Shown one piece after another: positions 20,183 to 48,290 of a stretch of 64,000 nt of DNA (the stretch's first letter is position 1; each line of letters opens with the position of its first letter). Source of the stretch: a virus; IMG/VR virus record IMGVR_UViG_3300042691_029560, positions 1 through 64,000 of that record; one strand, 5' to 3'. Below the pieces are notes generated by a model. That model made no database searches, was not told the origin of the DNA, and was given only the letters and a program-made list of their open reading frames with translations. Position numbers and translations under genes: made by a program.

Positions 20183-20192
20183 TTATCATCAC

Positions 20193-21556: not shown

Positions 21557-21557
21557 T

Positions 21558-22064: not shown

Positions 22065-22067
22065 TTG

Positions 22068-22277
22068 TTACTCTGCTACTTCCTCGTCATCTGCTACGAC
22101 TACAGCTGGCTCTTCTACTACAGGTTCGACTACAACCTCTGGCTCAACTACGGCCACTGGCTCTTCAACCTTTTTAGAAGCTGGCTTTGGAGTTACTTTT
22201 TTAGGAGCAACTACAACTTCTGCAGCCTTCACACCGCCGAGCATGTCGACAGCACGGAAGTTTGTCTGAACTGACAT
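22068..22277 (-). CDS. Small acidic V/E/P-rich protein
   Basis: 69 aa, AGGA RBS, in operon. Confidence 0.65.
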   Translation of the reverse strand: MSVQTNFRAVDMLGGVKAAEVVVAPKKVTPKPASKKVEEPVAVVEPEVVVEPVVEEPAVVVADDEEVAE

Positions 22278-22291
22278 ACTGTCCTACTTTC

Positions 22292-23401: not shown

Positions 23402-23422
23402 TGAATATTCTCCTTAGTGAAG

Positions 23423-23463
23423 CGGGCGACGCGTTTTGTGAATATCACTGTAACGCGCCGCCC
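23423..23463 (-). terminator. GC-rich hairpin after the major tail gene (attenuator or RNA-stability element)
   Basis: Inverted repeat GGGCGACGCGTT...AACGCGCCGCCC; no clear U-tract. Confidence 0.5.
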
Positions 23464-23478
23464 GTTCCTAACCGTTTA

Positions 23479-25023: not shown

Positions 25024-25062
25024 TGCCTTTTCTCCTTCTTACTTAATTGATTGAGTTGTTGG

Positions 25063-25944: not shown

Positions 25945-25981
25945 TCTTAATCCTTAATTTAAAGTCTGTAGTCCAGTTACT

Positions 25982-26007
25982 GGGGCGGCCTTTTGACGGG
26001 CCACCCC
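25982..26007 (-). terminator. Hairpin after the major capsid gene
   Basis: GGGGTGGCC-cgtcaaaa-GGCCGCCCC on the minus strand; weak U-tract. Confidence 0.5.
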
Positions 26008-26027
26008 AACAACTAGGGGTTTATCGA

Positions 26028-30900: not shown

Positions 30901-32717
30901 GGCACCATACTTACAAGATCTAGCACAGCCTGAGGGTCGTCCGGAGCAACAATAGCAAAATATAGAGGCTGAACGTCAGAAGTTTCAGGAGTTAGCTGGA
31001 CTGGCTTTCCTGGATCTTTTGGGGTTGGACTACTTTTAGGTGCGCCTTCTGGCTTAGCCTCGTCTTTTTGAGTTTCTGTTACCGCATCAGTTGCAGGCTT
31101 TTGAGCTTCAGCTATTTCAGCTGGAGTATTAGGTGCTGCAACCATTGCAGAAGCAACAACAGGAGATGCCCAGTTATTGTCAGTCTCTGGTTGCATCTCA
31201 TCGCGTTGTTTTGAAGCACGCCACTTTTTTAGAAGCGGGTGATCATAAGATTCTATTCGCTCTTCTTTTTCATCTCCAGCACTTGTCATAGGAGTTTTGT
31301 AGTCTCCTGGAGAATAAGAAGCACGTTGGCTTTGTACCCAAGCCGGGAAGTCATAAAGAACTTGGTGTAGATCTTCCTTAGTCATTGCAGGAAGTGTGCC
31401 AGAAATTCTAGCGTTTGGTCTATCTATTGGAGTACGAGGTTCACCAAGAATTCCAGAAGTATCTAGGGGACCTTCAAGTATTTCTTGTGGAGGTAGCCCA
31501 GATTCGGCTCTCTTTCTTTGCTCTTCTAGACTAATTCCCCCAGGCTTACCTTTGGAAGCTTCAGCACCCTGAGGTGTTGCACCTTGCTGTCCTGGTGCAA
31601 CACTTTGCTTTCCAGCAGTAGTTTTTCCAGTATTGCCTTTGCTACCAAATCTTCCACCAGCAGCCCTAGGTTGTTTTGCAACATTTGCCGAACGTTCTTT
31701 TGAAGTATAGCCAGGCGTACCCATACCGCCTTCTCCAGCAGCAACCATACCAAGATCAATCATCTCCCAGTCTTCTTCTGGAATTGATCGGGCAGCTAGC
31801 ATAGCTTCGTCTTTATCTAGGTCAAAAACAGAAACTTTTCCATAAGGACTACTTGCAAGTCTTGCTGCCATCAGTACAGCAGACGAAGGATCTATTAATA
31901 TATGACTTTTTTCTATGCCGTCATCTTCAAAGTCAAGCTGCTCGTCATAGTCCCAAACATCGTGGTCAACATTACCCATGTCATCCCAGCAGTCGTTATC
32001 CCAAACGTAGACTTGCCCATCAATGTCAACTTTGTATAGACGATCTAATCCAGACCCATCCAAACAAACTCTAGCCATAAATTCTGGGCCATAATTTTCT
32101 TCCAAGTCAAAAGCATTTTTAAATGGATCAACTGGATTTTGAGACATTAAGTATCCATCAGCTTTCATAGCTTTAGGATCTGCGTGCTCTACAATGTCAG
32201 CGGCCCAACGCCAAGCGGAATCCCCGCCCCACAGCGCCCACGCTATTCGTCCGTTAGAAGGGAAGTTGTCTTGGCCAGGCTTCCAACCCTTACCCTTTTT
32301 GTCAACTTCGTGACGCGGGAAATATTTTGCTATATGGCGGACTTTTTGTAGACCTATCTGTCCGCCGCGAGCCAAGATACGAGCAGTGTTAAGGCCAACA
32401 GGAGTGCCGCCACGCTTGTGCTCTTTACGCCACTCAAGTGCTTTTTTAGCTTCAGCCTGAGCAGCTTTAGGAATTGTATACATACGTCCAGCAGCAGCTG
32501 TTATAGATTTTGCATCTAAAGTTTGGAGTGCTATATTAGCAAGAGATGCTTCATTTGAGTAAAGATTCCGATCGGCTTTTTCCCATTTTCTAGAAGAAAA
32601 TAACTCCTCGGGAACACCTGACTCAACAACCATGTTGAAGTCAGTATCGACAACTACACCATGATGGTCGCTCGTAAATAGGAGCTGAGACCCAGATTGG
32701 CCGATTAATGTGATCAT
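27963..32717 (-). CDS. Multidomain capsid maturation (prohead) protease
   Basis: Protease-like core EG.ETGDGR.F...LPLLWQ...H.GSVVVGRI...GVSAD; second segment GRVFGHIA.W...SGDWR...VN.PGFP; accessory domains (GGTPVG...IAWALWGGD; LRRYW..G.G..KIRW; ALPDG.YPI); upstream of the capsid gene. Confidence 0.85.
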   Translation of the reverse strand: MITLIGQSGSQLLFTSDHHGVVVDTDFNMVVESGVPEELFSSRKWEKADRNLYSNEASLANIALQTLDAKSITAAAGRMYTIPKAAQAEAKKALEWRKEHKRGGTPVGLNTARILARGGQIGLQKVRHIAKYFPRHEVDKKGKGWKPGQDNFPSNGRIAWALWGGDSAWRWAADIVEHADPKAMKADGYLMSQNPVDPFKNAFDLEENYGPEFMARVCLDGSGLDRLYKVDIDGQVYVWDNDCWDDMGNVDHDVWDYDEQLDFEDDGIEKSHILIDPSSAVLMAARLASSPYGKVSVFDLDKDEAMLAARSIPEEDWEMIDLGMVAAGEGGMGTPGYTSKERSANVAKQPRAAGGRFGSKGNTGKTTAGKQSVAPGQQGATPQGAEASKGKPGGISLEEQRKRAESGLPPQEILEGPLDTSGILGEPRTPIDRPNARISGTLPAMTKEDLHQVLYDFPAWVQSQRASYSPGDYKTPMTSAGDEKEERIESYDHPLLKKWRASKQRDEMQPETDNNWASPVVASAMVAAPNTPAEIAEAQKPATDAVTETQKDEAKPEGAPKSSPTPKDPGKPVQLTPETSDVQPLYFAIVAPDDPQAVLDLVSMVPASSTSTAPMIYRRLDKKWVRDEKTLSDLKSATPPPVVPLDSATLNDVLKQVDGITASAAYLQYEMMVLWGPREEILVAAGGLDRNRGNAEELRRYWTVGKGGLKIRWNTKGDWTRCVRQLEKYLGPRAKGYCALRHKEMTGMWTGDKRHREMYGRKGRGGNKAMFSSDVIKSSEMVINSLELLARSNNAKQRLGLLAAAPLVAGGSGSSFRIPLVIPEGKETGDGRTFRKGSITMRELPLPLLWQVRTSDGHNGSVVVGRIDRMERTEEGIGNAFGVFDTGEYGREAERLVRNGFIRGVSADMDQFEAEEEKKKSDSKAKTENDIDIDDDKKVGGDKLTINKARVMAITMVPKPAFQECKIFLLEEANPQEESMIPKDGIYAEDLDSPESASLVACAVVAGAIPVVPPAEWFNNPKLSKPTPITVTDDGRVFGHIAAWNVDHIGLVAGTKPPRSKSNYSYFHTGVVRTANGKDVPVGQLTLAGGHAPLEASALDAVKHYDDTASAIADVHAGEDAHGIWVAGGLRPSATPEQVRALRASAPSGDWRPIRGSLELVAVCQVNVPGFPIARARVASGAVMALVAAGARPLAELKASELYGPDAQVAAAKARFDAFRSERAAVLSARSAELSNKVYGYVDNFAITKAERDAAVKKRQALPDGAYPIRNEEDLKNAIQAFGRAKESERNKVRRHIMRRAKALGKTDLIPEKWHKQHVASTSESITASTQPNELRARVAAAVEALGKTDAVGPVNPLPTVPVKADKPLGVQPKDKPVMEKQPVDERLTQEEIEQKVIEEVKKDSDISPYAQDGDKYVPGKNQPRDEYGKFRKVLARLKLNLGVAGLESVARKVAQAEGYTEIGDYGTAAKAASDLIGTVDRLDTGALNAKSLENIRLTTQELGKTIANLPLPFKDPNAKLRYSDLPPVLKDLLDDMTSRVEQKIGSKDADIATQEIRSFKSGSKLFGQSDISREFNKLLRLLT

Positions 32718-32949: not shown

Positions 32950-35900
32950 TTACTCCTCATCTTTGGATTCATCAGTAGATTTTTGAACAGCGTTTCCAAT
33001 ACTATATCCGTCCAGAGGGCTCCAGTCTCCGAGCTCTGTCCCAAGAATATAGTCTACAGCTTTTTGAGCCTGGCTAGTTGCGCTAATGATCTCATCTGGG
33101 TTAGATTTTAGGTGCTTTAGCCAACTTTGAACGTAAGCTGCACTATTATCAAATACTGCATCAACGCCAAACATATTACCTAGAAGAGCGGCTCCAATTT
33201 CAGCAATAAGTTCTTCTCTAGCTCTGGACTCTAGATCTGTTTCATAGTCTTTAGTTAGATCTGATCTATCTAAGCGATTTGGATGACCAGTGCTGTGTAC
33301 CAGCTCATGGGCAATGGTATCAAACAGATCTTCAGGAGATTCAAACTGCTCTAGATTAGGAAGGGTCACTTGGTCAGAGATAGTTCCCCAGCTTGGTGCT
33401 TGGTGAGCACCGCCAACTCCAACGTACTTGTGAGTGACGTTAGGTGCTTTTCCAGTTCTAGCGGCCATAGCTTTCTTGTATCTTTCAACAATAAACTCTT
33501 GTGCATCCAGTGGAGTCATCTTAGGAAGAGATTCTGTAGAAAGATCAGGCAAGTTTAGACCATCAATCTGTTCAGCATTGAATACTGCCATAGCTTTGAA
33601 CATGGTGAATGATCTAGTCTTATTTGGGTCTTTCTCATCCTTTTGGACTATACGCATAGGAACAAGAATGAATGTACCCTTCTCACCCTTACGGACTTGA
33701 CCACCCATCTGCTCTGCCTGCTTATAGGTCATCCATCTAGGATCGCTGTACCCGTTTTCTTCTTGAGCAAATCTAAGTGCCATTGCGTTAACACCAGAGT
33801 AGATATGCTTAGAAGATGGGTTTCTAGGCAGACCCATACCAGCGTACTTTTCGCCTTCTTTATAAGGTTTACGCCAAGGAGTCTCGCCCTGCTTAATCTT
33901 TTCAAACAGGCCGGCCATAACTTTTTCTGTGGCAGTTTTGCTGTCAGAAACGACTTTCTTACCAGTACGACTCTTACCACCAGGCTTTTGAGCAAAGCCA
34001 GTTATTTCTGGGTTTTCATCAGATCCCGGGGTTCCAGGCGGATAAGCAGAAGGAGCATCCTCTGGTCTTAAGTTCGTGTCAGGGTTCCAGCTACGTGGGC
34101 CAGGATATCCTGGAACACCAGCCTGCTCCATCATGTCAACAGAGCTGTTAATCCATGGAGGAAGAACATCATTACCTAGTACAAAATCTACAGCTATCTC
34201 TGCTTCGGCCATAGCTTTAGTTATTTCAGCGTCACTTAAGCGGTGAGATTTTAGGTACTCAGCTGTTCTATTTGGATCATGGTTAATTCCTAGACGCTGT
34301 AGTAACAGCTGTGATGCAATTTCAGCCACAGCTTCTTCCCTAGCTCTTTGCGGATCGGTAACACCTCTTCCAGCAAGATGGCCTTCTCTTCCAAGTCTAC
34401 GTCTAGTTCCGCTAGCATGGGCAAGTTCGTGGAATAGACTGTATAGATAATCCTCCGGACTATCGTACTTACTTCTATCCGGAAGCCTAATTGATTCAAC
34501 ACCTTCACTTACAGACCAGAATGGAGTTATAGGTTTTCCTTTATTAGGTCCTTCTTTTGTCTCAATACCAATCAGATCTTCGTAGACCTTTAGTCTTCCA
34601 GATCCACCACGCTTCTTTTCAGCTTCAGCAAATCTACCAAGAACGAATTCCAAAGCCTGAGAAGCTGTCATTTTTTGCTGCTGCTTAGGGTTGTATGGCT
34701 CTAATCCATCCATCTGAGCTGCGTTAAACACAGTCACAGGAGTCTGAACAAGTACACGTTCTCCGGTATCCTCGTTTTCAATAGTGCGGAATGTCATAAT
34801 CCGAACACCCTGCTCACCATCACGTATCTTTGCGCCCATTTTTTTAGCCTGAGCTACAGACATCCATCTTGGATCTGTATATCCTCTCTCGGCTGCAGCT
34901 GCGGCAAGTGCGTGGTGGTTTATACCACTGTATTGGTGCTCTGAAGATGGGTTGAATGGCATGTTGCTAGGATTAACCGGAGCAGACATTGGGTCTTCAG
35001 CAGGATACTCAGAGTATGGTTTGTCGTAATCACCTGTACGATATGGCCTAGGGTTTTTAATACGCTCACGGAAAATGTCAAGCATCTTGGCTGCAGCTGA
35101 TTTATTATCAGCTACGGCTTTAGCTTTCTTTTCTTCAAAAGTTTTAGCTGGAACGGTTTCAGATGGAAGCGTTTGAGCAAAGCCATCTACATCTTCACCG
35201 CCCCTAATTTTGTCATCTTTTAGTGCAGCGTCTGCAGCATCTAAATTATCAGTAAAGTCTTTAGCAACCTTATCAACGGTAGGAGCTTCAATAGCTTTTG
35301 GAGTAGCTGGTTTCTTTGGCTTTAGATCTTCTGGGTGATTTTTCTTCCAACGATCTTTAGCAATTCTTGCAGCAAGTTTTGCTTTCTTAATTGCAGCAGA
35401 TAGCTCAGAGATAGCAGCCATCTTCTCTTCAACGCCCTTAGACTTCTTCAAGTTGTCGATAGCTTTTTGTAGATCGGCTTTGACGTAACGCATGTTGTTT
35501 ACGAATTCGCCGACGTTGTTTACATCTTCACGAACCTTGGAGGTCTTACCCTTCCATTCGTCAAATAGACCTAGGGCGTTGCTTAGCGAAGCTATAGCCT
35601 CTAAAATACGGTGAGGACGCTTAGGTTGTTTTCCACCAAGCTGAGCAAATCCAGCTTCATCTACTCCAGCAGGAAGTATTTGAGTGTTTTTACCTGGAGT
35701 TTGTGCAAAACCTACGTTATCTGACTTAGTGTTGTCAGGGGTCTCTACTAGGTCGAGCTCTACAGTTAAGTTTCCATTTGAATCTTCTTTAACTGAAGTA
35801 ACCTTAAATTTTGAATTTCTTGGTAATATAACTTCATCTTCAGCGTATCTAGATAATGCAGACCCCATAGAATATCCGGTTAATTTAGATCCTTTAGGCG

Positions 35901-38271
35901 AAAGTGCATATGTTATTGATTTGCCAGTAAGTCGATTTCCGGTGAGTGCCTGTACAGGATTTACAAATAAATCAATCGAGTTTAAATCTGTAGAAGTTGA
36001 CATAAAGCCAGGGTCAATAAATTCAGCTCCAGGGACTAAAGCCTTTTTAGCTTTTTCAAAGTCATCTAGTCCCCTACGAGATTCACCAAGTGTAACTACT
36101 TTTCCATCACTAAAAAACTCTCCTCTAAACAATCTAGAAGCTATTAGGGGATTTTTTGAAGTTAAAGAGTCTAGCCCACGGACTACAGATTCTTGATCTT
36201 TAGGAACAGGTGTACCAGTCCTTAATGCTTTATTTATAGGTATATAAGCTGCACGAGTGCTATATTTTCTAGCAGCACTTGACTCATCTTTTGTAATAAC
36301 ATCTTTTGAAGATAAGCCTTTAGACAGATCTGCTGGTGGAGTAAATGTAGATTTTCTAGCTTTAAGTTGTCGCCAATCAAAATCTCCGGACTTCATTTTA
36401 AAGAAATCGTTGTCAGATAGGAAATAGTATCCAGCCTGAATTACGTCAAACGTATCTGCATTTTCTTCATCTTCTTCATCAGCATCTTCATCAAAAATAG
36501 ATTCGTTTAGACTAATACGATACAGTCCAGTGTTAGAGTCGGATGGATTTCCGGTTACTTGATCAAGAGTAATTCCTGTAAACTCTGCTTCATCACTTCC
36601 AAGAACTTCTTTACCGGGTTCTGCATACCTGCTAGTTACTGATCTATTCAAATCCTGAAATCCTAGGGGAAGAGTGTCACTGTCAATAGACACATTAAAC
36701 TTAGTCTTGTCCCCACGTTTTAAAGTTTTATTTTCCAGTGTTACTGTTCTGCTACCGTCTGAAGACTCTACAGACTTTCTAGAAGACTCTAATTTTTTAT
36801 CTTCTTCGGCAGCTTGCTCACGTAGTTTTTGTCGTAAATCCTCTCTAGCTGCTTGTAATTTTAAAAATTTTGAACTATTTGTATATTCTCTAGTGTCTTC
36901 ATAAGACACGTAATCATCAATTTCAGCACCTTCAAAAGGTTTTTTTGGATCAGCATTAAGCCTTTTTTCTAAAGATTCTTTAGTTACAATTGCATATTCC
37001 GGAGCTATTCGCTCTGCTTCAACAGCTTCCCACCCAATATCATCTCCCTCTTGCATCTCGTATTCTTCTTTAGACAATCCATTTTCATCTAATTCAACAG
37101 GGTAGTCGTTATCTTTAAATTCTTCGGTTCTAAAAATAAATTTATCTTTGTCTTCTTCTTTACCAGTGATGTCAAATAAAGTTACTCCAGTGTACCTAGA
37201 TGGAAATCTTTCTAGCCTAGGTTCTTCACCAAAACCAATATCGTCACCGAGATAGTCTGTGAATCCAGTGACTCCCTCAAAATGTTTTTCATAATCATCT
37301 AGCCCGGTGCCCGACTCATAAGATCTGTCAAGTGGATACCAATCTCCTGGATTAATTTTGTTTCCGGAAGATAGAGTTATAGGAGTGTCTCCAAATACAT
37401 CTCCCTGTACCTTGTTAAATCCAGGTTTTCTAGGTTTAGAAAATTTTCCTTCTTTTTGAGCAAAGCCGTCGTAATCAACGGTGTCGAACTCAGCGGTTCT
37501 AAGCATGATTTGACGTTCAGCTTCTTTAAAAGCTTCACTTGCGTCAATTCCAAGATCTACTTTTTCTTTAGGCTTGTCGCTAAAAGTAGCGGTAAATCTG
37601 CCACCCTTTTCCAAAATGTCGGTGACTAGACCGTTTTCCTCACGAGTCCAACGACTAATGTCTTTTTTAGCGTCTTTCTCTGTAGTAGCATCTACAAACT
37701 TACGTTCCGCCGCTGTTTCATTGAACTTGCCGGCTCTTTCAGATCCAGCTGCTTGTGCAAATCCTTCAGAGTCTTCTGGAAGAAGCTCAGAATCAAAAAA
37801 TACATCTCTCGGCAAGATAGTATCTTGATTTTCAGCAATTTTATCTAGCTTTTCTCTAGGAGCTACATATTTTCCGACTCTTCGAAGTTGAGTCTCATTT
37901 CCCGGAGAATCTTGAGAATTTACAATTCTTACTGGGACATACTCGACTCCGGCTTTACGAGCCGCGGCTAGTCTATGGTTACCTTCAGTAATAAATGCTT
38001 TACCATTTTTAGGGTTGAGCACTACTATAATTGGCTCTTTAAAGCCGATGCCTTCTTCTAGATCTTTGGCAATGCTGTCTACCGTACTCTGCTCACGAAT
38101 CTCATTACCTTCAGCTCCAATTAGAGCTTTGGTATTTACGTACTGAACTACCGATTTTCCATCAGATTTATAATCTTGTAGGTTAGGATTATACTTTTTA
38201 CTGTATTCAGCATCTACCTCTGTACTAGGTGTCTGTGAGAACCCACGGTCCCCCTTTTCGGGGGTTACGCT
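32950..38271 (-). CDS. Polyvalent protein, C-terminal part (reached by -1 frameshift): ParB/Srx-like domain, ADP-ribosyltransferase, 2x ArdC-N + zincin metallopeptidase
   Basis: Frame is open from the slip site. ParB motif FKEPIIVV...EGNHRLAAA; ART motifs Y..IN..LR / LFRG / GFMSTS / EDEVILPR; ArdC motifs NPSS.H.YSG.N...DPRWM...Q.....G..VRKGEKG...VFNA.Q.DGL; HELAH and HELVH. Confidence 0.88.
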   Translation of the reverse strand, partial: SVTPEKGDRGFSQTPSTEVDAEYSKKYNPNLQDYKSDGKSVVQYVNTKALIGAEGNEIREQSTVDSIAKDLEEGIGFKEPIIVVLNPKNGKAFITEGNHRLAAARKAGVEYVPVRIVNSQDSPGNETQLRRVGKYVAPREKLDKIAENQDTILPRDVFFDSELLPEDSEGFAQAAGSERAGKFNETAAERKFVDATTEKDAKKDISRWTREENGLVTDILEKGGRFTATFSDKPKEKVDLGIDASEAFKEAERQIMLRTAEFDTVDYDGFAQKEGKFSKPRKPGFNKVQGDVFGDTPITLSSGNKINPGDWYPLDRSYESGTGLDDYEKHFEGVTGFTDYLGDDIGFGEEPRLERFPSRYTGVTLFDITGKEEDKDKFIFRTEEFKDNDYPVELDENGLSKEEYEMQEGDDIGWEAVEAERIAPEYAIVTKESLEKRLNADPKKPFEGAEIDDYVSYEDTREYTNSSKFLKLQAAREDLRQKLREQAAEEDKKLESSRKSVESSDGSRTVTLENKTLKRGDKTKFNVSIDSDTLPLGFQDLNRSVTSRYAEPGKEVLGSDEAEFTGITLDQVTGNPSDSNTGLYRISLNESIFDEDADEEDEENADTFDVIQAGYYFLSDNDFFKMKSGDFDWRQLKARKSTFTPPADLSKGLSSKDVITKDESSAARKYSTRAAYIPINKALRTGTPVPKDQESVVRGLDSLTSKNPLIASRLFRGEFFSDGKVVTLGESRRGLDDFEKAKKALVPGAEFIDPGFMSTSTDLNSIDLFVNPVQALTGNRLTGKSITYALSPKGSKLTGYSMGSALSRYAEDEVILPRNSKFKVTSVKEDSNGNLTVELDLVETPDNTKSDNVGFAQTPGKNTQILPAGVDEAGFAQLGGKQPKRPHRILEAIASLSNALGLFDEWKGKTSKVREDVNNVGEFVNNMRYVKADLQKAIDNLKKSKGVEEKMAAISELSAAIKKAKLAARIAKDRWKKNHPEDLKPKKPATPKAIEAPTVDKVAKDFTDNLDAADAALKDDKIRGGEDVDGFAQTLPSETVPAKTFEEKKAKAVADNKSAAAKMLDIFRERIKNPRPYRTGDYDKPYSEYPAEDPMSAPVNPSNMPFNPSSEHQYSGINHHALAAAAAERGYTDPRWMSVAQAKKMGAKIRDGEQGVRIMTFRTIENEDTGERVLVQTPVTVFNAAQMDGLEPYNPKQQQKMTASQALEFVLGRFAEAEKKRGGSGRLKVYEDLIGIETKEGPNKGKPITPFWSVSEGVESIRLPDRSKYDSPEDYLYSLFHELAHASGTRRRLGREGHLAGRGVTDPQRAREEAVAEIASQLLLQRLGINHDPNRTAEYLKSHRLSDAEITKAMAEAEIAVDFVLGNDVLPPWINSSVDMMEQAGVPGYPGPRSWNPDTNLRPEDAPSAYPPGTPGSDENPEITGFAQKPGGKSRTGKKVVSDSKTATEKVMAGLFEKIKQGETPWRKPYKEGEKYAGMGLPRNPSSKHIYSGVNAMALRFAQEENGYSDPRWMTYKQAEQMGGQVRKGEKGTFILVPMRIVQKDEKDPNKTRSFTMFKAMAVFNAEQIDGLNLPDLSTESLPKMTPLDAQEFIVERYKKAMAARTGKAPNVTHKYVGVGGAHQAPSWGTISDQVTLPNLEQFESPEDLFDTIAHELVHSTGHPNRLDRSDLTKDYETDLESRAREELIAEIGAALLGNMFGVDAVFDNSAAYVQSWLKHLKSNPDEIISATSQAQKAVDYILGTELGDWSPLDGYSIGNAVQKSTDESKDEE

Positions 38272-38277
38272 TTTGGG
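38250..38277 (-). other. Programmed -1 ribosomal frameshift signal
   Basis: In-frame C CCA AAA heptamer (38277-38271), 6-nt spacer GCGTAA, hairpin CCCCC-GAAAA-GGGGG (38264-38250). Confidence 0.82.
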
Positions 38278-41200
38278 GAGTTCGCACCTCTACGCTTTAG
38301 AGTATCAATAAGTCTTTGAATCTCGTCAGCAGACTTGCTGTTCAGGTTCGTGATTCCAAGCTTACGCTTCTCTGCAGAAGTCAGACCAAGAGAGTTAGCC
38401 AGATCCTTGACACGCTTAAGTTGTCTAGGAGTTGGCTTACCGGTGTCGACGCCAGCCTTAGGGTTTAGAGCCCTAAGTTGTCCAAGCATTGCACCCATCT
38501 GAGCCTTAGTCAAGTTTTTACTTGATAGGGCATCTTGAATTGCAGTAGCTAGTTCTGGATCGATGCCGTCTCTGTTGCCACCAAGTTCCTTGAGGTAGTC
38601 ATACTGAGCGTCAGTAGCTGGCTCACCCATCTTAGGTGATACAACTGCGTTGCCAGGTTCTTGAGAAAAGCCGTCAGAATCATCATTAACATCATCATAA
38701 TAACCTCGGCTGTTTTCAGCATCTTCATCAACAAGATCGCTGTTGTAGTAGTCTAGCTTTTCATTAGCAAATGCTAGGGCTTCTTCTTTAGAACCAAAAG
38801 TCTGAGAACCTTCGTCATATTGGAATTCTGCATCTTTATCCATGTATTGATACGAGTGATCTACTTCCCACTCACCGTCGCCCTTATACCAGACCTCAAT
38901 CTGACTGTCAGAGTAAGGGTCTGTAGTATAACCACCATCGCTGTTTTGACTTAGTTTGTCATCCCTAACTGGAGTGCCTTTTCTGCCAGGTTCTTGGGCG
39001 AAACCACCCTGATCTTTCTTACGGTTTTTCTTATCTAGAATTCTCTGAGCACGATCTACAAAATCACTAAGAGCATATCTAAACTCATCTGATACTCTAG
39101 CATCACCAAAGTCCTCATAAAGCCTTGCCATTCTATCGATAAACTCTTGCTCAGTACCATTTTCAATAGCTGTTGAAAGTTCTTTCTCTAGATTTGCTTC
39201 CGAGAAGTTTTGAGATAGATTTGAGTTATAGTCAGCTGCTTCGTTAGCTGCCCACTCAATCGCGTCATCGCGGTCATCAAACTCTTGCCTATCATACGCA
39301 GAATCTCCGCTATCAGAACCATAAGTAATTCTAGCTTCGTACTTACCATTCTCGTTTGGCTCATTGTCAATGTTGATTTCTGCTCCACCGCTTCTGTAGT
39401 CTCCCCAGTAACCATCATCTGCAGCTTCTGCAATCTTATCGGCATCTGTTGAATAGTAAATTTCTCTAGCAGTAGCCATTTCATCTTCAACGTCAGATAG
39501 ATCTAAGTTTCTTAAATCGTCAGGATCTCTAAGAGCTGCTCGTATTCCAGCACGATCTTCAATTCTCTTAATAACTTGATCTCTCAGGTTATCGAGCTCG
39601 TCTGCCAAACTAGAGTCACTAGAATTATCTCTTCTAAGTCTAGATACAACATCTTGAAGATCGGAAGCAAACATGTAAGACTGCTCTACAGCCCAGTCTT
39701 TACCATATTTTTTATTGTCTGGATTGTCTGGATCTGACTCTGCTAACATTTCTCTCAAGTTGTCGCCGTCTAACATAAGGAAAGTGTCCTCATTTGCAGC
39801 GTCAAGTCTTCTTGCAAGCTCATCAATTCGCTCACCCTTTAGAGAGTTGTAGTAAGCATCCATCTCACCAGCAACTTCGGCAGGTCCGCTTTCTGTAAAG
39901 TCGTCACCAGCACGGTCGCGGTTGAACTGCTCTTCTCCAGGAATGCCTGGCTCCTGAGCAAAGCCGATAGTCTCTGGACGATCCTTCTTTCTACGAAGCT
40001 TGTCGTTTAGAGCATCTACTTCAGCACGGTTCATGTTTGGTAGGTTGTCTAGGATGTCCTTGACTTCTTCTGGAGTTAGGTCCTTGGTCACAAGCTTGCT
40101 GTTCAATGACTGAAGAGCACGGTCGCTTGGCTTGTTAGGGTCGACGCCCGGTTTGAACGGAGCATCACGCATAGGGCCAATAAGTGCACTCATCTGTGCC
40201 TTAGTTAGGTTCTTGTTCGCAAGAGCTTCTGTAATTGCCTGAGCAGTTAGGTCGTCAGCTGGAACTCTTTCATCAGCGTACTCTTGTAGAAGAGCATACT
40301 GAGCAGGAGTTGCAGGTTCCATCTGCTTAGCAGACAAACCTCCAGTTTTTTCCTTGTTTTGCTTCTTATTGCCGTCAGCAATCTGCTTACGTAGCCATTT
40401 CTCGGCTGCCTCTGGACTATTGAATGATTTACTAGTAGTATTTCCTAGTCCATTTCTATTTTCAGGATTAGCGTATTTAGCAAACCATCTGTTAGATTCT
40501 GTACCGTCTTCATTTTTATAGACGCCATACCTAACGTCAGATATGTTACCGTTGGCATCTTTATAAACTACGCCTCCTACTTTATCGACAGACTTAAGAT
40601 CTAAAGCGTTTGGGTCCTCTTCTAATAGATCGGAACCGGTTCCTGGTTCTTGGGCGAATCCACCGCTCTTATCTTCACGGAAGAAGTCATAGTCTTCACC
40701 ATTGTTTAGACCAATCGTATCAAACCATTCACCAGGTCCAAAGCCTGATTCTTTGTCTGCTTCTAGGAATAGCTTATAAGCTAGTACTTCACTATGGTAG
40801 CGACTAGGTTTTTCAATAGCTCCCTTAATCTCTCTACCGTTGTACCCATTAGCAACTGCCATATCAGCAATTAAATTGTAATAGCTGTATGGATCACTTT
40901 CGGCGAGACCATTTAGATAATCATCGTTGTAGCTCATAGCATTTTGTACTAGATCGCTAAGTTCTTCATTGTCATAGTCACCAGCAAGTTCAGAAAGTTT
41001 TTCCGAATCAAAATAACCATCGTCTTCTGCGCCAAGAGCACTTAAAATTTTATTAGCATCTTCTTCGCTCTTTGAGAAAAGATCTTTGTTAATTTTATCT
41101 TGCTCGTCCCAGGCATTCTGTACGTCAGATGCAAGGCCGGCAAGTTCACCATCTTGAGGAAGGTACTTAAATTGCTTAGATCTTGCAGCCCAACCAAATT

Positions 41201-44200
41201 GAGCTTTTTGTTGTTGAAGATCTCGGATTTCATCTCTATTATCAGATTTATCAATTTTACCCTGAAGAATATCTTCAGCTTCTTTGACAGCTCGATTTAC
41301 TTTATCACGTATTGGCTTATTAGCTGCTTTAGGAGTAAAATCAATTCTACCCTTTGGATAGTTTGTCCAAGCATAGTTTTTAGCTGGCTCTTCGCCACCA
41401 GGACGTTGAGCAAAGCCTTCACCTTCAGAGCCAAAACCAATCTCGTTTAGCCAGTGATCATTGTTCTGATCCTCAGCCCAGGTGTTCATTTCTGCGTCAA
41501 GAACATAGTCATGATAGTTATAAGGTTTCTCAATCATACGTTTGAACTCAGATGGGCTTGCATTTATAGCTTCAGCAGCATTCGCAATTTTGTAGAAGTA
41601 TTCAGCAGGATTTGTACGAGCTAAATTGTCTAGGTAGTTTTCATTTAGCTCTTTAATTTCCTGAGCAGCTTCGTAGTCTTCATCATCCTCGTCTAGACCG
41701 CCGTCTTCAATAAAAGCATACTTCTCAACAAGTCTCTTAGCTAGAGCTTTGTTCTTTGCTCTAACTTCTGGGCTTGGTCCGTTTCCAGGTGCTTGACCAA
41801 AGCCTCCGTAATCAAGATCGGCAGCGTAATCCTCTGCGTCCTGATTTACTTCCATACTGTTGTAGTAATTAAGTTTTTCGTTAGCAAATGCTAGAGCTTC
41901 TCCCTTAGTGTCGAAGGTCTTAGAGCCTTCGTCAAACGGCAACTCTCCTCTAGATTTGTCCATGTGAATGAACTGGTGGTTTACTTCCCACTTACCGTCA
42001 TTGGTAGGGTTGACTTCAATTTGACCTGGCTCACCAAAAGTAGTGCTAAGAGAACCGTCGTCACTCGTAATCAATTTGGAATTGTTTATAGGAGTATATT
42101 TTCTGCCAGGTTCTTGAGCGAAACCTCCGGACTCAAGATCAGCGGCGGCATCTTCTGCATCTGAGAATACCTTGTCACCGTTGTAGTAGTCTAGTTTTTC
42201 GTTAGCAAATACAAGAGCTTGCTTTATAGAATCAAACTTCTGAGAACCTTCGTCAAATGCAAACTCATTTCCAGAGCGTGCCATGTGGTTGTACGCGTGG
42301 CTTACTTCCCATTTACCGTCATCAGTAGGGTTGACTTCAATTTGCTTGTTAGAAGTTGGACTAGTACTGTAACCACGATTGCTAGTTGGCTGTAACACTT
42401 CTGGTTTGCCAGTTGCTTGAGCGAAGCCAGCTGCAGGAGATTCTCCGTTAGCGTCTCTAAGAGCTCGATCAATAGCCTCAACAGCGTCTTGTTTAGCCTT
42501 AAGTGGGTCACCAAACCCTAAGTTAGCTTTATCAATGTCTTCGATTGCTTGTCTAATTTCATCTTCGTAGTCTGGAACAATGTCTACAGGCTTACCATCG
42601 AAGGTGACCACAAGGAAATTACCGTCAGGATCTCCTTCTACGACTACCTTTAGGCGTCCGTCTGCAGAAGTAAAGTTTCCGCTTCTATCCCAGAGATCAG
42701 GATTGTCAGCTGCCTTACGGTCAATCTTAGGAGTGTAGCTAATTGAAAGATCTGCACTCTTGCCAACCTCAGCAAGAAGCTTGCCCATCTCGCCTTTGGT
42801 TAGGGCCTTGTTAGCAACGGCTTCTTCAACCATATCGCGAACGTCGGTTGGAAGTTTTTCACCTTGGTTATCTAAGATACCCTGAAGCTTGTTGTACTGT
42901 AGGGAGCTAGCTGGGTCTTTAGTCCAGGCTGGTGGCTCGTCGCCAGGTTCTTGAGCAAAACCGCCCATCTCGTCTGGAGACTTTCTAGCGTTTCCTTCAA
43001 GTTCTGAGAACAGACGTTCGCCGTCTTCAAGTGCCTTGTCTAGATTATCTGTAGGTTCACCCTGGCCCATAATTTCACCATTACGGTTGTAGGCGATAGG
43101 GGTAATCATACCCTTGTCTTTTTCTAGACGTACAATTCCACCATCTTCTGTTTCTGCAGTAGCAGCAAAGAAAATATCACTATCTGGATATAGAAGGAAT
43201 TTTCCGCGTTTATTTGAAGACTCACCAGGCTTTTGATCAAATCCACCGGTTTGCTTCTTTAGGAATTTGTCAACTAAAACACCTACGTCTTTTGCTAGGT
43301 CTGCTGAATCGTAGCCCCAACCAATGTAAGGAAGCTCACCAACCCATTCGCCATCGTAAGATACAGAAATACGAGATAGGTTTGTACCACCAAATCCCAT
43401 GTCTGGTTCTCCATCTGCCATTGACTCAAGAGTCAATCTTCCATCTGGAGACTTGTAGGTAGCGTCATTACCGCCTTCAGGATCTCCGAACCAGTGGCTT
43501 AGGTTGGCAATGTGAGCCTCGTCAACTCCACCAGCTTGGCCGGCTGATTGGGAGAATCCTTCGATATCATCGGTTCTTTCACCGTACTTGATATTCGGTC
43601 CGCCTCTAAGAAGTTCTTTAAGATCCGAAACAATTTCTTCTGCTTCTCTTTCAACACCTTCAGGCTCCATGTCTGGGTATCGAGAACTATCGTCAACTAA
43701 AACAAAATTCTGTACGTAGCCAATTGGTTTTCCATCATAACTAACTTCCCAGTCTCCACCTTCTACATAGGCAGAAGCAGCTCCTTTATTGGTTTCATAG
43801 TCATAATCACCAGATTTGTCTACATATTTTATTTCAAGTTTTCCGTCCTTAGACTTCCACTCGTCTCTAAAATCAAAACTACTGTCAAGTTCACCAGAAT
43901 AGTCTTTGGCTAAGTTACGTCGCTTAGGACTGCTATTAAGGTGCTTTGAGATTACATTCTCAATTTCATCAGCATAGTCGTCAATATCCATGAGCTCGAT
44001 TGGTTGAGAGTATGGTCTATCGATGTATCTAACAGGCTGTCCATCTTCTAGATCTATAGTATATTTTTCCCCATCAACAGATACTTCTAGATAAGATGTA
44101 TCGACTGCAGGATCATCTGCATAATAGCCAGCATCAGCGTCTCGGACGTAAGTAATCTTAATTCTTCCATCTCTAGAAACCCAGGTACGGTCCTTAAATG

Positions 44201-47200
44201 CTTCGGCAGACCAGTTGGCGTCTTTAAATGCGTCTACTGGAAGCTTATATTTTAGAGGCTCATCTTCTCCAGGCGCTTGAGCAAAACCTTCAATGTCATC
44301 TTGACCAGGAAGATCTGCTAGAGAAATGTCATTTGCAGCCTTTTCTGCTGCACCAATGCTCTTGAAGTTTGATGACGCACCTAGTTCGCCACCATCCTGA
44401 GAAATTGGAGTTACGTCCCAGGTACCATCGCCCTTAGGTGTGTAACGCATCATCAAACCTTCAGAGTTTTTCTTCAATAGGTTTGGACTTGCGTCTTCCC
44501 AGCCGTTGGTGTCTGGCATACCCTTTAGACGAGTAATGAGATCTGAAGCTTCATCCTTGGTCATCTTTGGAAGACGCTTGCTTAGATCAGCGGCTTCTTT
44601 AGCAGGAAGACCCTTAGAAATTAGACCACGGCGGATAGACGCTAGTTGTCTATCTGAAGGTACGTTGGTGTCAACGGCCTTTCGCATCTCACCAATTACG
44701 GCACCAATTTCGCCCTTAGTTGCTTCTTTGTTTGCAAGAATATCTTGCATAGACTTACGAAGTTCTTCTGGAAGTTTGTCACCCTGCTTTTCTAGGATGT
44801 TAGCTACGAATCCACGCTGGGCATCGGTTGCTGGGTCAGAAGATTTTCCACCCGGTTCTTGACTGAAACCAGGCATTTGATCATAACCTTCAAAGCCATC
44901 AACGTCATAGTAATCCCGATCATTTGATTTAGCTTGAGCGTTACCAAAAGCTTCGTCAAGCGCACCTATTTTTCCGTCTTCACCTTCACCATAGTTTTTA
45001 GGGTCATAGCCATCACTAAACTCGCGCTCTTTGTCACCACCAAATGGACTTTTAACGAGACTACCACCTACAACATCAACAGTACCGTCGGAATACTGAG
45101 TTATCTCAGCTGAACCGGCGTCACCTTCGTAGAACCAAACACGTTTTCCTGCTGCTTTATCGGATTCAGACGTTATTTCTTTGAAGTCTTTTCCGTAAGC
45201 CTTAACAAGATCGTCAACGGTATTAATTTCTGGTTCATTGCCAGGTGCTTGATAGAAGCCATCTCTTTCCCAGTCTTCAGGACCCTCTGGTGGCTCTGGT
45301 GGATCGTAGTCACTCTCTCCAGCACCAAATATACCTGCAATATCGTCCATGGAAGAGCCCAAAGGAAGTGACTCATAACTAGTGTCTACATCTTGACTAG
45401 GTGGCTCATCCCAGCCTCCAGGATTGTATTTACCGGCAGTATATTGAGTTAATTCGGCTGCTCCACCAGGATAAATTTCTAGTTCTGCGTACTTGTAGTT
45501 ATCTTCACTACCTAATGTTAGAAATATCACACCATCATCATCAGGGAATACATCTCCTGAATACCCGTATTCCTCTGCAAGATTTTTAATAGCAGCTAAC
45601 TCTTCATCAGAATAAAAAGAACTCTCAGAAGACCCATTTTCATAGTCGTCATATTTTTTAAGTTGAGCAGCGATTACATCGTGGTACTTAGCGTATTCAG
45701 GGTCCTCTAGCAAAGATTTCATTGCTTCTGCATCTAAATCCTTGAAAGACGTAAATACTTTAGCTTTTAATCCACGGTTGTACTTAATTTGCTCAATTTT
45801 GGCCTCGCGAGCCTTTTTTACATCTGACTTAAGTGGTTCTAAGCCATCTTTTTCACGTTTTTTATTTTTTGGAAATGCAAAGATTCCTTCTATATCATTC
45901 TGGGATCTTAAGTTATAACCATACTCACTGCTTAAAACACCAACACCAATGGTGTCTCCACTGTAGTACCTTTTACCAGCATTTTCTCCTTCGGTAATAT
46001 TTATTTCAAAATTACTCGGGTTAGGATTATTTTCTTGTCCACTCCAAGGCGTATATACAATCTCGTGGCCATAAGCTGACCATTTTCTAATGCCTTTGGC
46101 AGCATCTTCGGGGGTGGTAACTTCTACTGCATCATACTTTTTTGCAAAATCGTCAAGATTAATATTCTCCCCACCAGGTGCTTGATCATAGCCATAAAAA
46201 TCGCGATTGTCGCGATCCTCGTCGTATGTGTCTGGCTCATCATCAGAATTATCGTAGTTTTCATAACCCTCATCCATCAGTCCAGCTAAGTCGTCTAAGC
46301 TAGAACCGGCTGGAATACTATTTCCATCACTTCTAACGTCAGCATCTGCTGGGCTATCCCAGGATGCTGCATAACGCTTTGCAACATAAAAGTTTTCTAG
46401 GTCTGCGGATCCATCTGCACGTACAATTAGCTCAGCCCATGCGTCTCCAGCGTCATCGCCTTTTACTAGAGATATATATGGTTCTTCTCCTAAATATTCA
46501 CCTCTAGGTAAGCCGTAACCAAACTCATCCATTAATTTTTGAATATCCTCGAGTTCTTTATTTGTCCAGTACGGGCTATCAGCTTCCCCTGCTTCATATG
46601 CCTTTGCTTTTTCTAACTGCTTACTAGCATAATCATGATGTGCCGCATATTCAGGATTGTCGAGTACTGACTGGATCTGCTCAATAGATCCAGTATTAAT
46701 TCCACGATATGCGCGAATTTCAGCTACATCTTTAGGGGATATTCTTTGAGCTTTTGATACGAGCTCTTCCGCATTTGCAATTGCACGATCTTTTAGTTCG
46801 GTGCTTTCATATGCTGCGTTTTTCTTGTTTTCCAGATTTTTTTGTAGTGCTTCTACGTCGCCAAATCGAACAGCTTTTTGTCGATCGTAATATGATTCAA
46901 AATTATTGTAGAATTTAGGATCACCGTATTCAAAAACACCATAGTCGTACTCTTTCTCACCAGGAGCTTGCTCGAAGCCTTCATTATTTTCTAATAGATC
47001 CTTAGGAGATAGTTTTTTATTTCTGCCAGGTTCTTGAGCGAAGCCCTTAGCTGGCTGCTGTTTGCGTAGACGTGCTTTTGCTTTTGGAGCCTTACCCTTA
47101 CCAGAGTCATTATCTGCGGCAAGCTTTTGAAGGTTTGCCCATTCCTGAGCGTAGCCAACAAAATCTCCAAATTCATCTGACAAAGAAAGTACAGGTTTGT

Positions 47201-48290
47201 TTGAATCATATGAGCCATCAGGACCAGCACCAATAAATTTTGAGCCCGAAGGTGCTTGCTCGCCGGATGGAAGAGTTGAAACAGAGTAGCCGTCTGCAGA
47301 CGTAAAGGTGCCATCACCATTGTCAGTCCAACCAGTTGGAGCAGACTTGCGGTTTGCTAGAAGTTCTTGTAGTGGAATTGCGTAACGTGAGTTTTTAGAG
47401 TCTGCCTTAAATGCTGGAGCTTCTCCAGTTCTAAGAATAGCTTTTAGACCTTCTACCTTAGATGCAGGAACAGAATAGATACCTGATGGAAGATCGGCTC
47501 CTCCTCCAGAAATTTCAACTTCAATCCTGTCGCTGTCTTGTGGGTTACCAGCAAACTTACCAACGAACGACTTAATCATGTCGCCAATCATGGCAAATAT
47601 ACGAGATCCACCACCCATCTCAGCAAATCGACCCTTACGGTCACGACGTTGCAACTTGGCACGTGCAGAACGTGCTGCTGAAGAGTTATTTCCAGCGAAT
47701 GGGTTTCCGATACCAAAAGCAGCGGTAATTGCTTGAATCTTAATGTCTGCTGGAACAGAAGCAGTTAGTGCCTCTAGACGTGCAGCAGCGTAGATGCTCT
47801 TGCTACTTCTTGGCTGTTGAACAAATGCCTCAAAGACTGCTTTACGTACAGACTCGTCAGTGATGCGTGGGTCGTAGGAAACCCAAGCAGCATTACGGAC
47901 GCGACGTGCAGATGCAGTAATCGGGCCAACGGTTTTTGTTGAGTACGGGTGAGCACTAGGGAGTAGGTCCCTAAACTCTACTACCGGAGCTTTATTGGAA
48001 GCCGGACCGTCGATAGCGTAGTCAACAAAATTGGTTACTTCACGCGCAGCGTGGAAGAAAATGTCTCGAGGGTCTTCGATGTCTAGTTTGCTTGCAATGT
48101 AACGATCTGTGTAGTTAAGAACGTCTTTTAGTGCTACTTGTCTTACCGAGGCAACTAACGCGTTTCTTTCAACAACGTAGTTTATAACGCCTCTCTTAAA
48201 GATCTGCTCACTCTCGGTGACAGTTATTTCTAGATCTTTTTCACTTAAGCTCTCTAGAGCAGCAACTAGGGGATTCAAATTTTCACTCAC
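38265..48290 (-). CDS. Giant acidic modular head-module protein (3341 aa), N-terminal part of the polyprotein
   Basis: Long ORF between Dps and the protease; 18 G[FY]xQxPG-like linkers separating duplicated D/E-rich modules. Confidence 0.88.
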   Translation of the reverse strand: MSENLNPLVAALESLSEKDLEITVTESEQIFKRGVINYVVERNALVASVRQVALKDVLNYTDRYIASKLDIEDPRDIFFHAAREVTNFVDYAIDGPASNKAPVVEFRDLLPSAHPYSTKTVGPITASARRVRNAAWVSYDPRITDESVRKAVFEAFVQQPRSSKSIYAAARLEALTASVPADIKIQAITAAFGIGNPFAGNNSSAARSARAKLQRRDRKGRFAEMGGGSRIFAMIGDMIKSFVGKFAGNPQDSDRIEVEISGGGADLPSGIYSVPASKVEGLKAILRTGEAPAFKADSKNSRYAIPLQELLANRKSAPTGWTDNGDGTFTSADGYSVSTLPSGEQAPSGSKFIGAGPDGSYDSNKPVLSLSDEFGDFVGYAQEWANLQKLAADNDSGKGKAPKAKARLRKQQPAKGFAQEPGRNKKLSPKDLLENNEGFEQAPGEKEYDYGVFEYGDPKFYNNFESYYDRQKAVRFGDVEALQKNLENKKNAAYESTELKDRAIANAEELVSKAQRISPKDVAEIRAYRGINTGSIEQIQSVLDNPEYAAHHDYASKQLEKAKAYEAGEADSPYWTNKELEDIQKLMDEFGYGLPRGEYLGEEPYISLVKGDDAGDAWAELIVRADGSADLENFYVAKRYAASWDSPADADVRSDGNSIPAGSSLDDLAGLMDEGYENYDNSDDEPDTYDEDRDNRDFYGYDQAPGGENINLDDFAKKYDAVEVTTPEDAAKGIRKWSAYGHEIVYTPWSGQENNPNPSNFEINITEGENAGKRYYSGDTIGVGVLSSEYGYNLRSQNDIEGIFAFPKNKKREKDGLEPLKSDVKKAREAKIEQIKYNRGLKAKVFTSFKDLDAEAMKSLLEDPEYAKYHDVIAAQLKKYDDYENGSSESSFYSDEELAAIKNLAEEYGYSGDVFPDDDGVIFLTLGSEDNYKYAELEIYPGGAAELTQYTAGKYNPGGWDEPPSQDVDTSYESLPLGSSMDDIAGIFGAGESDYDPPEPPEGPEDWERDGFYQAPGNEPEINTVDDLVKAYGKDFKEITSESDKAAGKRVWFYEGDAGSAEITQYSDGTVDVVGGSLVKSPFGGDKEREFSDGYDPKNYGEGEDGKIGALDEAFGNAQAKSNDRDYYDVDGFEGYDQMPGFSQEPGGKSSDPATDAQRGFVANILEKQGDKLPEELRKSMQDILANKEATKGEIGAVIGEMRKAVDTNVPSDRQLASIRRGLISKGLPAKEAADLSKRLPKMTKDEASDLITRLKGMPDTNGWEDASPNLLKKNSEGLMMRYTPKGDGTWDVTPISQDGGELGASSNFKSIGAAEKAANDISLADLPGQDDIEGFAQAPGEDEPLKYKLPVDAFKDANWSAEAFKDRTWVSRDGRIKITYVRDADAGYYADDPAVDTSYLEVSVDGEKYTIDLEDGQPVRYIDRPYSQPIELMDIDDYADEIENVISKHLNSSPKRRNLAKDYSGELDSSFDFRDEWKSKDGKLEIKYVDKSGDYDYETNKGAASAYVEGGDWEVSYDGKPIGYVQNFVLVDDSSRYPDMEPEGVEREAEEIVSDLKELLRGGPNIKYGERTDDIEGFSQSAGQAGGVDEAHIANLSHWFGDPEGGNDATYKSPDGRLTLESMADGEPDMGFGGTNLSRISVSYDGEWVGELPYIGWGYDSADLAKDVGVLVDKFLKKQTGGFDQKPGESSNKRGKFLLYPDSDIFFAATAETEDGGIVRLEKDKGMITPIAYNRNGEIMGQGEPTDNLDKALEDGERLFSELEGNARKSPDEMGGFAQEPGDEPPAWTKDPASSLQYNKLQGILDNQGEKLPTDVRDMVEEAVANKALTKGEMGKLLAEVGKSADLSISYTPKIDRKAADNPDLWDRSGNFTSADGRLKVVVEGDPDGNFLVVTFDGKPVDIVPDYEDEIRQAIEDIDKANLGFGDPLKAKQDAVEAIDRALRDANGESPAAGFAQATGKPEVLQPTSNRGYSTSPTSNKQIEVNPTDDGKWEVSHAYNHMARSGNEFAFDEGSQKFDSIKQALVFANEKLDYYNGDKVFSDAEDAAADLESGGFAQEPGRKYTPINNSKLITSDDGSLSTTFGEPGQIEVNPTNDGKWEVNHQFIHMDKSRGELPFDEGSKTFDTKGEALAFANEKLNYYNSMEVNQDAEDYAADLDYGGFGQAPGNGPSPEVRAKNKALAKRLVEKYAFIEDGGLDEDDEDYEAAQEIKELNENYLDNLARTNPAEYFYKIANAAEAINASPSEFKRMIEKPYNYHDYVLDAEMNTWAEDQNNDHWLNEIGFGSEGEGFAQRPGGEEPAKNYAWTNYPKGRIDFTPKAANKPIRDKVNRAVKEAEDILQGKIDKSDNRDEIRDLQQQKAQFGWAARSKQFKYLPQDGELAGLASDVQNAWDEQDKINKDLFSKSEEDANKILSALGAEDDGYFDSEKLSELAGDYDNEELSDLVQNAMSYNDDYLNGLAESDPYSYYNLIADMAVANGYNGREIKGAIEKPSRYHSEVLAYKLFLEADKESGFGPGEWFDTIGLNNGEDYDFFREDKSGGFAQEPGTGSDLLEEDPNALDLKSVDKVGGVVYKDANGNISDVRYGVYKNEDGTESNRWFAKYANPENRNGLGNTTSKSFNSPEAAEKWLRKQIADGNKKQNKEKTGGLSAKQMEPATPAQYALLQEYADERVPADDLTAQAITEALANKNLTKAQMSALIGPMRDAPFKPGVDPNKPSDRALQSLNSKLVTKDLTPEEVKDILDNLPNMNRAEVDALNDKLRRKKDRPETIGFAQEPGIPGEEQFNRDRAGDDFTESGPAEVAGEMDAYYNSLKGERIDELARRLDAANEDTFLMLDGDNLREMLAESDPDNPDNKKYGKDWAVEQSYMFASDLQDVVSRLRRDNSSDSSLADELDNLRDQVIKRIEDRAGIRAALRDPDDLRNLDLSDVEDEMATAREIYYSTDADKIAEAADDGYWGDYRSGGAEINIDNEPNENGKYEARITYGSDSGDSAYDRQEFDDRDDAIEWAANEAADYNSNLSQNFSEANLEKELSTAIENGTEQEFIDRMARLYEDFGDARVSDEFRYALSDFVDRAQRILDKKNRKKDQGGFAQEPGRKGTPVRDDKLSQNSDGGYTTDPYSDSQIEVWYKGDGEWEVDHSYQYMDKDAEFQYDEGSQTFGSKEEALAFANEKLDYYNSDLVDEDAENSRGYYDDVNDDSDGFSQEPGNAVVSPKMGEPATDAQYDYLKELGGNRDGIDPELATAIQDALSSKNLTKAQMGAMLGQLRALNPKAGVDTGKPTPRQLKRVKDLANSLGLTSAEKRKLGITNLNSKSADEIQRLIDTLKRRGANSPKA

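Follow-up and report, generated by a model that had tools for sequence, protein, structure and literature searches.

Two giant reading frames meet at a predicted frameshift site

The 64,000-nucleotide window analysed here (positions 1 to 64,000 of IMG/VR virus record IMGVR_UViG_3300042691_029560) is part of a 92.7-kilobase (kb) viral contig of an uncultured lake phage, and carries on its minus strand two giant open reading frames (ORFs) that meet at what is very likely a programmed -1 ribosomal frameshift site. The upstream frame, ORF1 (38265..48290), follows the portal gene and encodes a giant modular acidic protein of 3,341 amino acids ending ...KRRGANSPKA immediately before a TAA stop codon; a Pfam search of ORF1 returned nothing informative. 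The second coding region (32950..38277, minus strand) lies in the -1 frame relative to ORF1, remains open for 1,775 codons to a stop at 32952-32950, reading PKSVTPEKGDRGFSQTPSTEVDAEY..., and would add 1,773 residues after Lys3340 to give a trans-frame product of 3,340 + 1,773 = 5,113 amino acids. The original prediction held that a programmed -1 frameshift fuses these two ORFs into a protein of about 5113 residues. It is strongly supported by the conservation of the cassette at the junction, by purifying selection, by the recurrence of the split and by orthologues in which both parts form one protein.

All of the elements originally described at the junction, which lies on the minus strand throughout, were found in the sequence. 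ORF1 ends AAC TCC CCA AAA GCG TAA, so that a slippery heptamer of the form X_XXY_YYZ, C_CCA_AAA (38271..38277), is set in the zero frame with CCA in the P site and AAA in the A site. The 6-nucleotide spacer GCG TAA (38265..38270) comprises one alanine codon and the zero-frame stop (TAA at 38267-38265), and is followed directly by a predicted stimulatory hairpin (38250..38264) composed of CCCCC (38264-38260), a GAAAA loop (38259-38255) and GGGGG (38254-38250). This predicted all-GC hairpin thus begins 6 nucleotides past the heptamer, within the interval of roughly 5-9 nucleotides at which a stable structure is looked for at programmed -1 sites, and -13.1 kcal/mol is predicted for the 40 nucleotides following the heptamer. 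On the 5' side, a TAG (38290..38292) four sense codons before the heptamer bounds the -1 frame and sets the 5' limit of an overlap that is as tiny as had been proposed and that contains the heptamer. On the 3' side the -1 frame reads PKSVTPEKGDRGFSQTPS..., entering a G-F-x-Q motif at once; the linker originally noted there is present just past the hairpin as G-F-S-Q (38233..38244).

Across 3,342 codons there are 13 in-frame X_XXY_YYZ heptamers, which gives P = 0.023 for at least one among the six positions of the overlap. Over the 15.3 kb that the two ORFs span, the junction hairpin is the only instance of a perfect 5-base-pair G/C stem with a loop of 3-7 nucleotides. Two further in-frame heptamers, both A_AAA_AAG, lie inside ORF1 on the minus strand (46143-46137 and 45819-45813). 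A_AAA_AAG is the most slippery heptamer type in Escherichia coli. The -1 frames of these two stop after 3 and 8 codons with no obvious hairpin following, and they are probably incidental.

We consider it highly probable that ORF1 is joined to its extension by programmed -1 ribosomal frameshifting, in the form of classical tandem slippage. The majority of ribosomes would read CCA AAA GCG and stop at TAA, yielding the 3,341-residue protein. A fraction would pause over the GC hairpin that starts 6 nucleotides past the heptamer, and tRNA-Pro and tRNA-Lys would re-pair one base back (CCA to CCC, AAA to AAA). The slipped ribosomes would then continue via the G-F-S-Q linker into a ParB-like module, an ADP-ribosyltransferase and two ArdC/zincin-peptidase modules to complete the 5,113-residue protein. 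Comparison between genomes makes it very probable that such slippage occurs. Slippage of RNA polymerase on the A run, producing messages with one extra A, would restore the frame too; yet the run consists of only four As, where transcriptional slippage sites are known to need about seven or more, and slippage of the ribosome agrees with the conserved hairpin, with its spacing and with the X_XXY_YYZ register. We therefore regard a transcriptional origin as highly implausible.

Other potential signals at the junction were also considered. A Shine-Dalgarno-like GAGGTG lies at 38290-38285 on the minus strand, 7 nucleotides upstream of the heptamer, and a related phage contig described below (L001) has a similarly placed AGGTGGTG; as a conserved stimulator this element was rejected, nothing similar being present at loci of the type of contig L003, introduced in the next section. 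No terminator-like or promoter-like site was found on the coding strand at the junction, and an intrinsic terminator or promoter there was rejected on that ground.

The junction cassette is conserved between diverged phages

A search of GenBank phage DNA with the junction gave no match. In a scan of viral contigs, neither the last 400 amino acids of ORF1 nor the exact 29-nucleotide site had matches; a degenerate pattern did match. In all, eight other distinct contigs carrying the cassette were identified, comprising one NCBI metagenome contig that is 63% identical in the ParB-like block (L003) and seven IMG/VR contigs (L006-L010, L012 and L014) recovered via a neighbouring domain or the degenerate pattern.

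Each of the eight has a homologous giant ORF that finishes with AAC, TCC or GCC followed by CCA AAA GCN TAG, and the stop is succeeded by CCCCC, five variable bases and GGGGG. The conservation of a ...PKA-stop plus hairpin in homologues, which the original prediction had named as a check on itself, is thus found in diverged contigs. The heptamer C_CCA_AAA is identical in nine contigs (the window included) and in the fused orthologue discussed below. The codon after AAA is GCC, GCG or GCT, a synonymous variation of alanine, and the stop is TAG in the relatives and TAA in the window; the CCCCC/GGGGG stem is constant while its loop exists in seven versions. The base before CCA is always C, contributed by codons for three amino acids in these contigs (AAC, TCC and GCC, for Asn, Ser and Ala) and by CGC (Arg) in L001. 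Codons of these ORFs have C as their third base in only 18% of cases, and the chance of C followed by CCA and AAA, given any residue followed by Pro-Lys, is approximately 0.045 per lineage.

Over the 150 amino acids upstream and the 100 downstream of the site, the window and the other contigs share approximately 20-30% identity. The flanking modules are largely unrelated between the window and the other contigs and, because their identity is so low, the cassette stands out as the best-conserved element of the junction. The invariant preceding C, the invariant CCA and AAA beside a varying alanine codon, and the fixed stem with its varying loop all indicate that selection acts at the site on the RNA rather than on the protein; nucleotide conservation here goes beyond what the protein needs.

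The -1 frame of the relatives opens 1-17 codons before the heptamer and stays open for between 108 and more than 770 codons, with no start codon near its beginning. It reads PKS[LV]AP.EGA...G[FL]DQ... and then passes into ArdC or other modules, with a G[FL]xQ motif downstream of the site in every relative. When the upstream module was searched against 1.84 billion representative proteins, nine clusters were returned, and seven of these end ...PKA. One of the seven (P0031) is a window-type relative that ends KRRGANSPKA, with a last domain 83% identical and a different module order. The nearest named phage, DSL-LC01 (L011, OQ999401.1), has a 3,289-amino-acid hypothetical gene after its portal gene (16801-26670) in which neither the PKA-stop cassette nor an ArdC extension was found.

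What comes next after the cassette differs between these phages. The window has a ParB-like module there; in L003 an additional helical module precedes the ParB-like one; L006-L010 and L014 go straight into ArdC; and L012 continues with an unrelated domain. On the upstream side, the window contains two additional modules. This pattern suggests that modules shuffle around a fixed, putative recoding site.

The extension is constrained from the junction onward

If the cargo is reached by frameshifting, coding constraint should extend from the site itself and not from a later start codon. At five loci (L006-L010), the ratio of nonsynonymous to synonymous substitution rates (dN/dS) from the hairpin to the earliest possible start codon is 0.06-0.45, mostly 0.1-0.2. 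For the window (38217-38023), dN/dS is 0.19 against L001, and the proportions of nonsynonymous and synonymous differences against L003 are 0.13 (pN) and 0.85 (pS), respectively. The first possible start codon lies 43-144 codons in for the relatives and 85 codons in for the window. The start-less stretch therefore behaves as coding sequence under purifying selection, and the downstream frame has no initiation site of its own and is constrained from the site onward, as expected of a programmed frameshift.

The original prediction had placed the first start codon of the -1 frame inside the ParB domain, and both the PHROG match and the alignment of orthologues agree. The earliest ATG, GTG or TTG is the GTG at 38022-38020, 85 codons past the heptamer; it corresponds to residue 90 of the -1 frame ORF (P0001), within a block that can be aligned to the orthologues and inside a ParB-like match in which PHROG ParB families span P0001 residues of approximately 41-128. 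The only nearer GTG (38246-38244) is in the frame of ORF1 and meets a stop ten codons later.

These observations bear on two further explanations. In the first, ribosomes would terminate and then reinitiate, or use a non-standard start near the stop, to make two separate proteins. The stop does adjoin the start of the -1 frame coding region, and a G-rich, Shine-Dalgarno-like stretch AAGGGGGA lies within the hairpin; but the -1 frame lacks ATG, GTG and TTG for 43-144 codons at every locus, the sole nearby GTG (38246-38244) leads in the ORF1 frame to a stop after ten codons, and reinitiation leaves unexplained the invariant C before CCA (in codons for four amino acids), the third bases of CCA and AAA, and the X_XXY_YYZ register. 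We consider this very unlikely. Somewhat less remote, though still improbable, is a fixed frameshift mutation that split the gene and left the second ORF either dead or truncated from GTG 38022. Fused orthologues do exist, and gene callers begin the second ORF at this GTG. However, purifying selection acts on the 85 codons that lack a start, and the GTG falls within the ParB-like domain; the second ORF is without stops over 1,775 codons and 76% identical to an orthologue; a canonical heptamer, a hairpin and a very short overlap all fall at the break; and the split is common to lineages whose synonymous divergence is saturated.

The split recurs in independent assemblies

The exact 3,341-amino-acid ORF1 is recorded on three contigs from NCBI, ENA and Logan and on nine from JGI, and a 1,690-amino-acid gene call beginning at GTG 38022 is present on 4 + 12 + 1 contigs in the NCBI, ENA, Logan and JGI collections. 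The same GTG codon also begins a variant of 1,112 amino acids that is 98% identical and differs in the length of its cargo. On this evidence, the split is not an assembly artefact.

The alternative of an assembly or sequencing indel, with the real gene being one continuous ORF, draws on the fact that the break falls within homopolymer runs (the C4A4 and C5 runs of the junction stretch CCCCAAAA) and on the continuity of the closest orthologue. Against this, over 12 contigs recorded in NCBI, ENA, Logan and JGI share these ORF lengths and boundaries; eight diverged contigs and seven representative clusters have the same stop and frame change; and conservation of the stop, heptamer and hairpin would not be expected from error. 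We consequently regard an indel as scarcely credible.

Among near-identical strains (P0008, P0016 and P0017) the cargo is varied, the 1,112-amino-acid variant being roughly without the middle portion that contains the ADP-ribosyltransferase. Gene calling on one 36.6-kb contig divides the cargo ORF into two parts, of 774 and 847 amino acids.

Fused orthologues and a possible reversal of the site

The closest orthologue, P0003, is a single continuous ORF of 4,795 amino acids on the contig denoted L001 (the same as L004; contig IMGVR_UViG_3300032334_001128), which is identical to L002 over 6.8 kb. The alignment of P0003 to ORF1 starts at residue 1 and has 69% identity; against the extension, identity is 66% in the ParB-like block and 76% over the C-terminal 900 residues. 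Three other relatives, P0004-P0006 (3,832-4,461 amino acids), are likewise continuous and hold both parts in one ORF. All four retain V-R-P-K at the junction position.

At the site in L001 (2875-2915), which L002 shares, the sequence is CGC CCA AAA GG TAG A followed by a CCCGGC-GATAA-GCCGGG hairpin. The heptamer keeps its frame, and a compensated hairpin of another sequence persists. The spacer before the stop triplet is one base shorter; as a result the TAG falls in the -1 frame (CCC AAA AGG TAG, where slipped ribosomes would stop after one further codon), leaving the zero frame open. Slippage at this putative site would therefore truncate the protein, in the manner of E. coli dnaX.

It is tempting to speculate that the cassette is a portable two-isoform switch at the border between scaffold and cargo, whose default is flipped by one-base changes in the spacer, a view that we hold only tentatively and think rather less likely than not to be right. 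In the window and at least eight other lineages, the zero-frame stop would yield mostly the short form and some long form by slippage; in L001, the -1-frame TAG would yield mostly the long form and some short form by slippage, as in dnaX. The modules on both sides of the cassette also differ between lineages, as if it were moving with module shuffling.

Several points count against programmed frameshifting as the explanation, or against its importance. Because the four relatives P0003-P0006 encode the cargo in frame, frameshifting does not appear to be obligatory for the family. The claim that the cargo is made only as a frameshift extension consequently does not extend family-wide. The window's hairpin, at 5 base pairs and -13 kcal/mol, is weaker than those of the relatives (6-8 base pairs and -16 to -23 kcal/mol), and the whole 111-nucleotide region folds no better than shuffled sequences (z -1.37). 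In E. coli, A_AAA slips less readily than A_AAG, and the host may have another repertoire of tRNA-Lys and tRNA-Pro. The efficiency of slippage may be too low to matter in this lineage.

Cargo carried by the extension

The C-terminal part of P0003 is matched by the extension at 76% identity, and the cargo begins with a ParB-like (ParB/Srx) domain at approximately 37906..38169 on the minus strand, identified through PHROG ParB-like families (E about 2e-6). An ADP-ribosyltransferase domain (ADPrib_exo_Tox, PF03496; E 1e-11) follows at 35752..36303, corresponding to P0001 residues 663-846. Two ArdC-like units occupy approximately 33037..34962, each consisting of an ArdC-N domain that binds single-stranded DNA and a zincin peptidase, MPTase-PolyVal. 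ArdcN was matched in two stretches (E 3e-49), as was MPTase-PolyVal (E 1e-44), with a match to Tc-38 as well, and the anti-restriction family phrog_7245 was matched in the ArdC region (E 1e-111). By Pfam and PHROG, several conflict domains, the hallmark of polyvalent proteins, are thus combined in one polypeptide, which in this phage would be the frameshifted product only.

Both forms may enter the capsid, as would be expected for polyvalent proteins in this gene position; the evidence for virion packaging is the placement of the gene between the portal and the protease and capsid genes. The ratio of short to long form could then set the dose of anti-defence cargo, as in Gag/Gag-Pol systems. 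A sub-stoichiometric supply of cargo to each virion and a limit on the toxicity of the ADP-ribosyltransferase, both originally proposed, are conceivable.

Motifs of the form G-[FY]-x-Q-x-P-G occur between modules along both ORFs (32950-48290, minus strand) and are candidate linkers or cleavage sites. An ORF of 1,584 amino acids that contains a protease (27963-32717) lies just downstream of these motif-bearing ORFs.

In every assembly of this phage, annotation calls the cargo gene from a GTG inside the ParB-like domain. The true product is probably the 5,113-amino-acid trans-frame protein, which is among the largest proposed for any phage.

Relationship to known recoding systems

The site belongs to a kind of recoding that is known, in a gene class where, according to the literature found, it has not been described previously. 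A -1 frameshift in the major head protein of Lactobacillus phage A2, giving gp5A and gp5B, was reportedly described by Garcia et al. in 2004 (cited in PMC5009743 and PMC10885494). The A2 genome record shows that the major head gene, orf5, ends ACC CCA AAA GCG TAA (L019 3067-3081), and that its -1 frame reads PKSVTP... for 89 codons. The extension of the A2 head protein is made by -1 frameshifting, and the related heptamer C_CCA_AAG is highly shift-prone in E. coli (PMC5009743). The two sites share an identical 13-nucleotide core, C CCA AAA GCG TAA, with one sense codon (GCG) before the stop and C as the next base; in both, the -1 frame begins PKSVTP, the genes belong to the virion modules of tailed phages, and a second form is extended at its C-terminus. 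The differences lie in what is added and to what: A2 adds about 85-89 residues, an Ig-like domain (PMC5009743), to its major capsid protein, whereas the extension in the window is no short decoration domain of the capsid but 1,773 residues of enzymes joined to a 3,340-residue non-capsid protein. The downstream structure of A2 is also unlike that of the window, and more distant. Because its core is identical to that of the experimentally studied A2 site, the window site should be easy to test.

Parallels can be drawn with other systems. In retroviral and totiviral Gag and Gag-Pol, as proposed here, an abundant structural form stops after a heptamer and structure while a minority of molecules carry enzymes into the particle; those, however, are eukaryotic viruses with unrelated proteins, and in the window the ratio and the packaging are inferred. 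The tail assembly chaperones G and GT, found in lambda and most long-tailed phages, share the conserved -1 X_XXY_YYZ slip, the late structural operon and the common N-terminus of the two products, but the window site lies in the head module after the portal gene, involves unrelated proteins and leads into an enzyme extension. The tau and gamma products of E. coli dnaX resemble the putative L001/L004 site, with its heptamer, hairpin and truncating -1 stop one codon after the slip. They differ in that the dnaX heptamer is A_AAA_AAG and that the topology of the window is the opposite.

Combinations of these domains have been described as polyvalent proteins, for which packaging and injection were argued (Iyer et al. 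2017, PMC5512222). The likeness extends to ArdC-N, an MPTase zincin peptidase, an ADP-ribosyltransferase and a ParB-like domain in one giant polypeptide beside virion genes, and the difference is that a MuF domain, sought in the genome of this phage, was not found. Frameshifting goes unmentioned in that study, the word 'frameshift' occurring 0 times (PMC5512222). The nearest literature hint that we found is a remark accompanying PRFect, in which actinophage pairs of MuF-like and VIP2 ADP-ribosyltransferase genes appear among 'false positives' for which frameshifting was thought possible since they are fused in other genomes (PMC10885494). There, as here, the predicted slip would link a protein of the head module with an effector, the two forming a single fused gene elsewhere; the genes are others, however, and an unvalidated possibility was raised with no conservation analysis given. 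Literature searches combining frameshifting with polyvalent proteins, ArdC or anti-restriction returned nothing relevant, and no paper on this site was found.

If this interpretation is true, the locus would provide a bacterial-virus counterpart of Gag/Gag-Pol, in which a giant carrier protein is made in fixed ratio to an armed form bearing ArdC anti-restriction modules, an ADP-ribosyltransferase and a ParB-like module, with a bearing on how phages dose injected proteins. It would add a well-conserved -1 site beyond the tail-chaperone and capsid-decoration classes, for which naturally split and fused variants are available for comparison.

Genomic setting and host

The late genes of the window all lie on the minus strand. 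They run from the large terminase (54469-55881) through the portal (49509-51269) and a 372-amino-acid DNA-binding protein, encoded between the portal gene and ORF1, to ORF1 and its -1 frame extension. Directly after the extension come the 1,584-amino-acid protein, which has a prohead-protease region, and the major capsid protein (26028-27824), whose gene is separate from ORF1; adaptor and tail genes follow the capsid gene. No tRNA genes were found in the window. The major capsid protein is 69% identical to its homologue in the metagenome-assembled Actinomycetia phage DSL-LC01 (PMC10611076), with more distant kinship to phages of Microbacterium, Arthrobacter, Gordonia and Mycobacterium. On the strength of this relatedness, the host is probably a freshwater actinobacterium.

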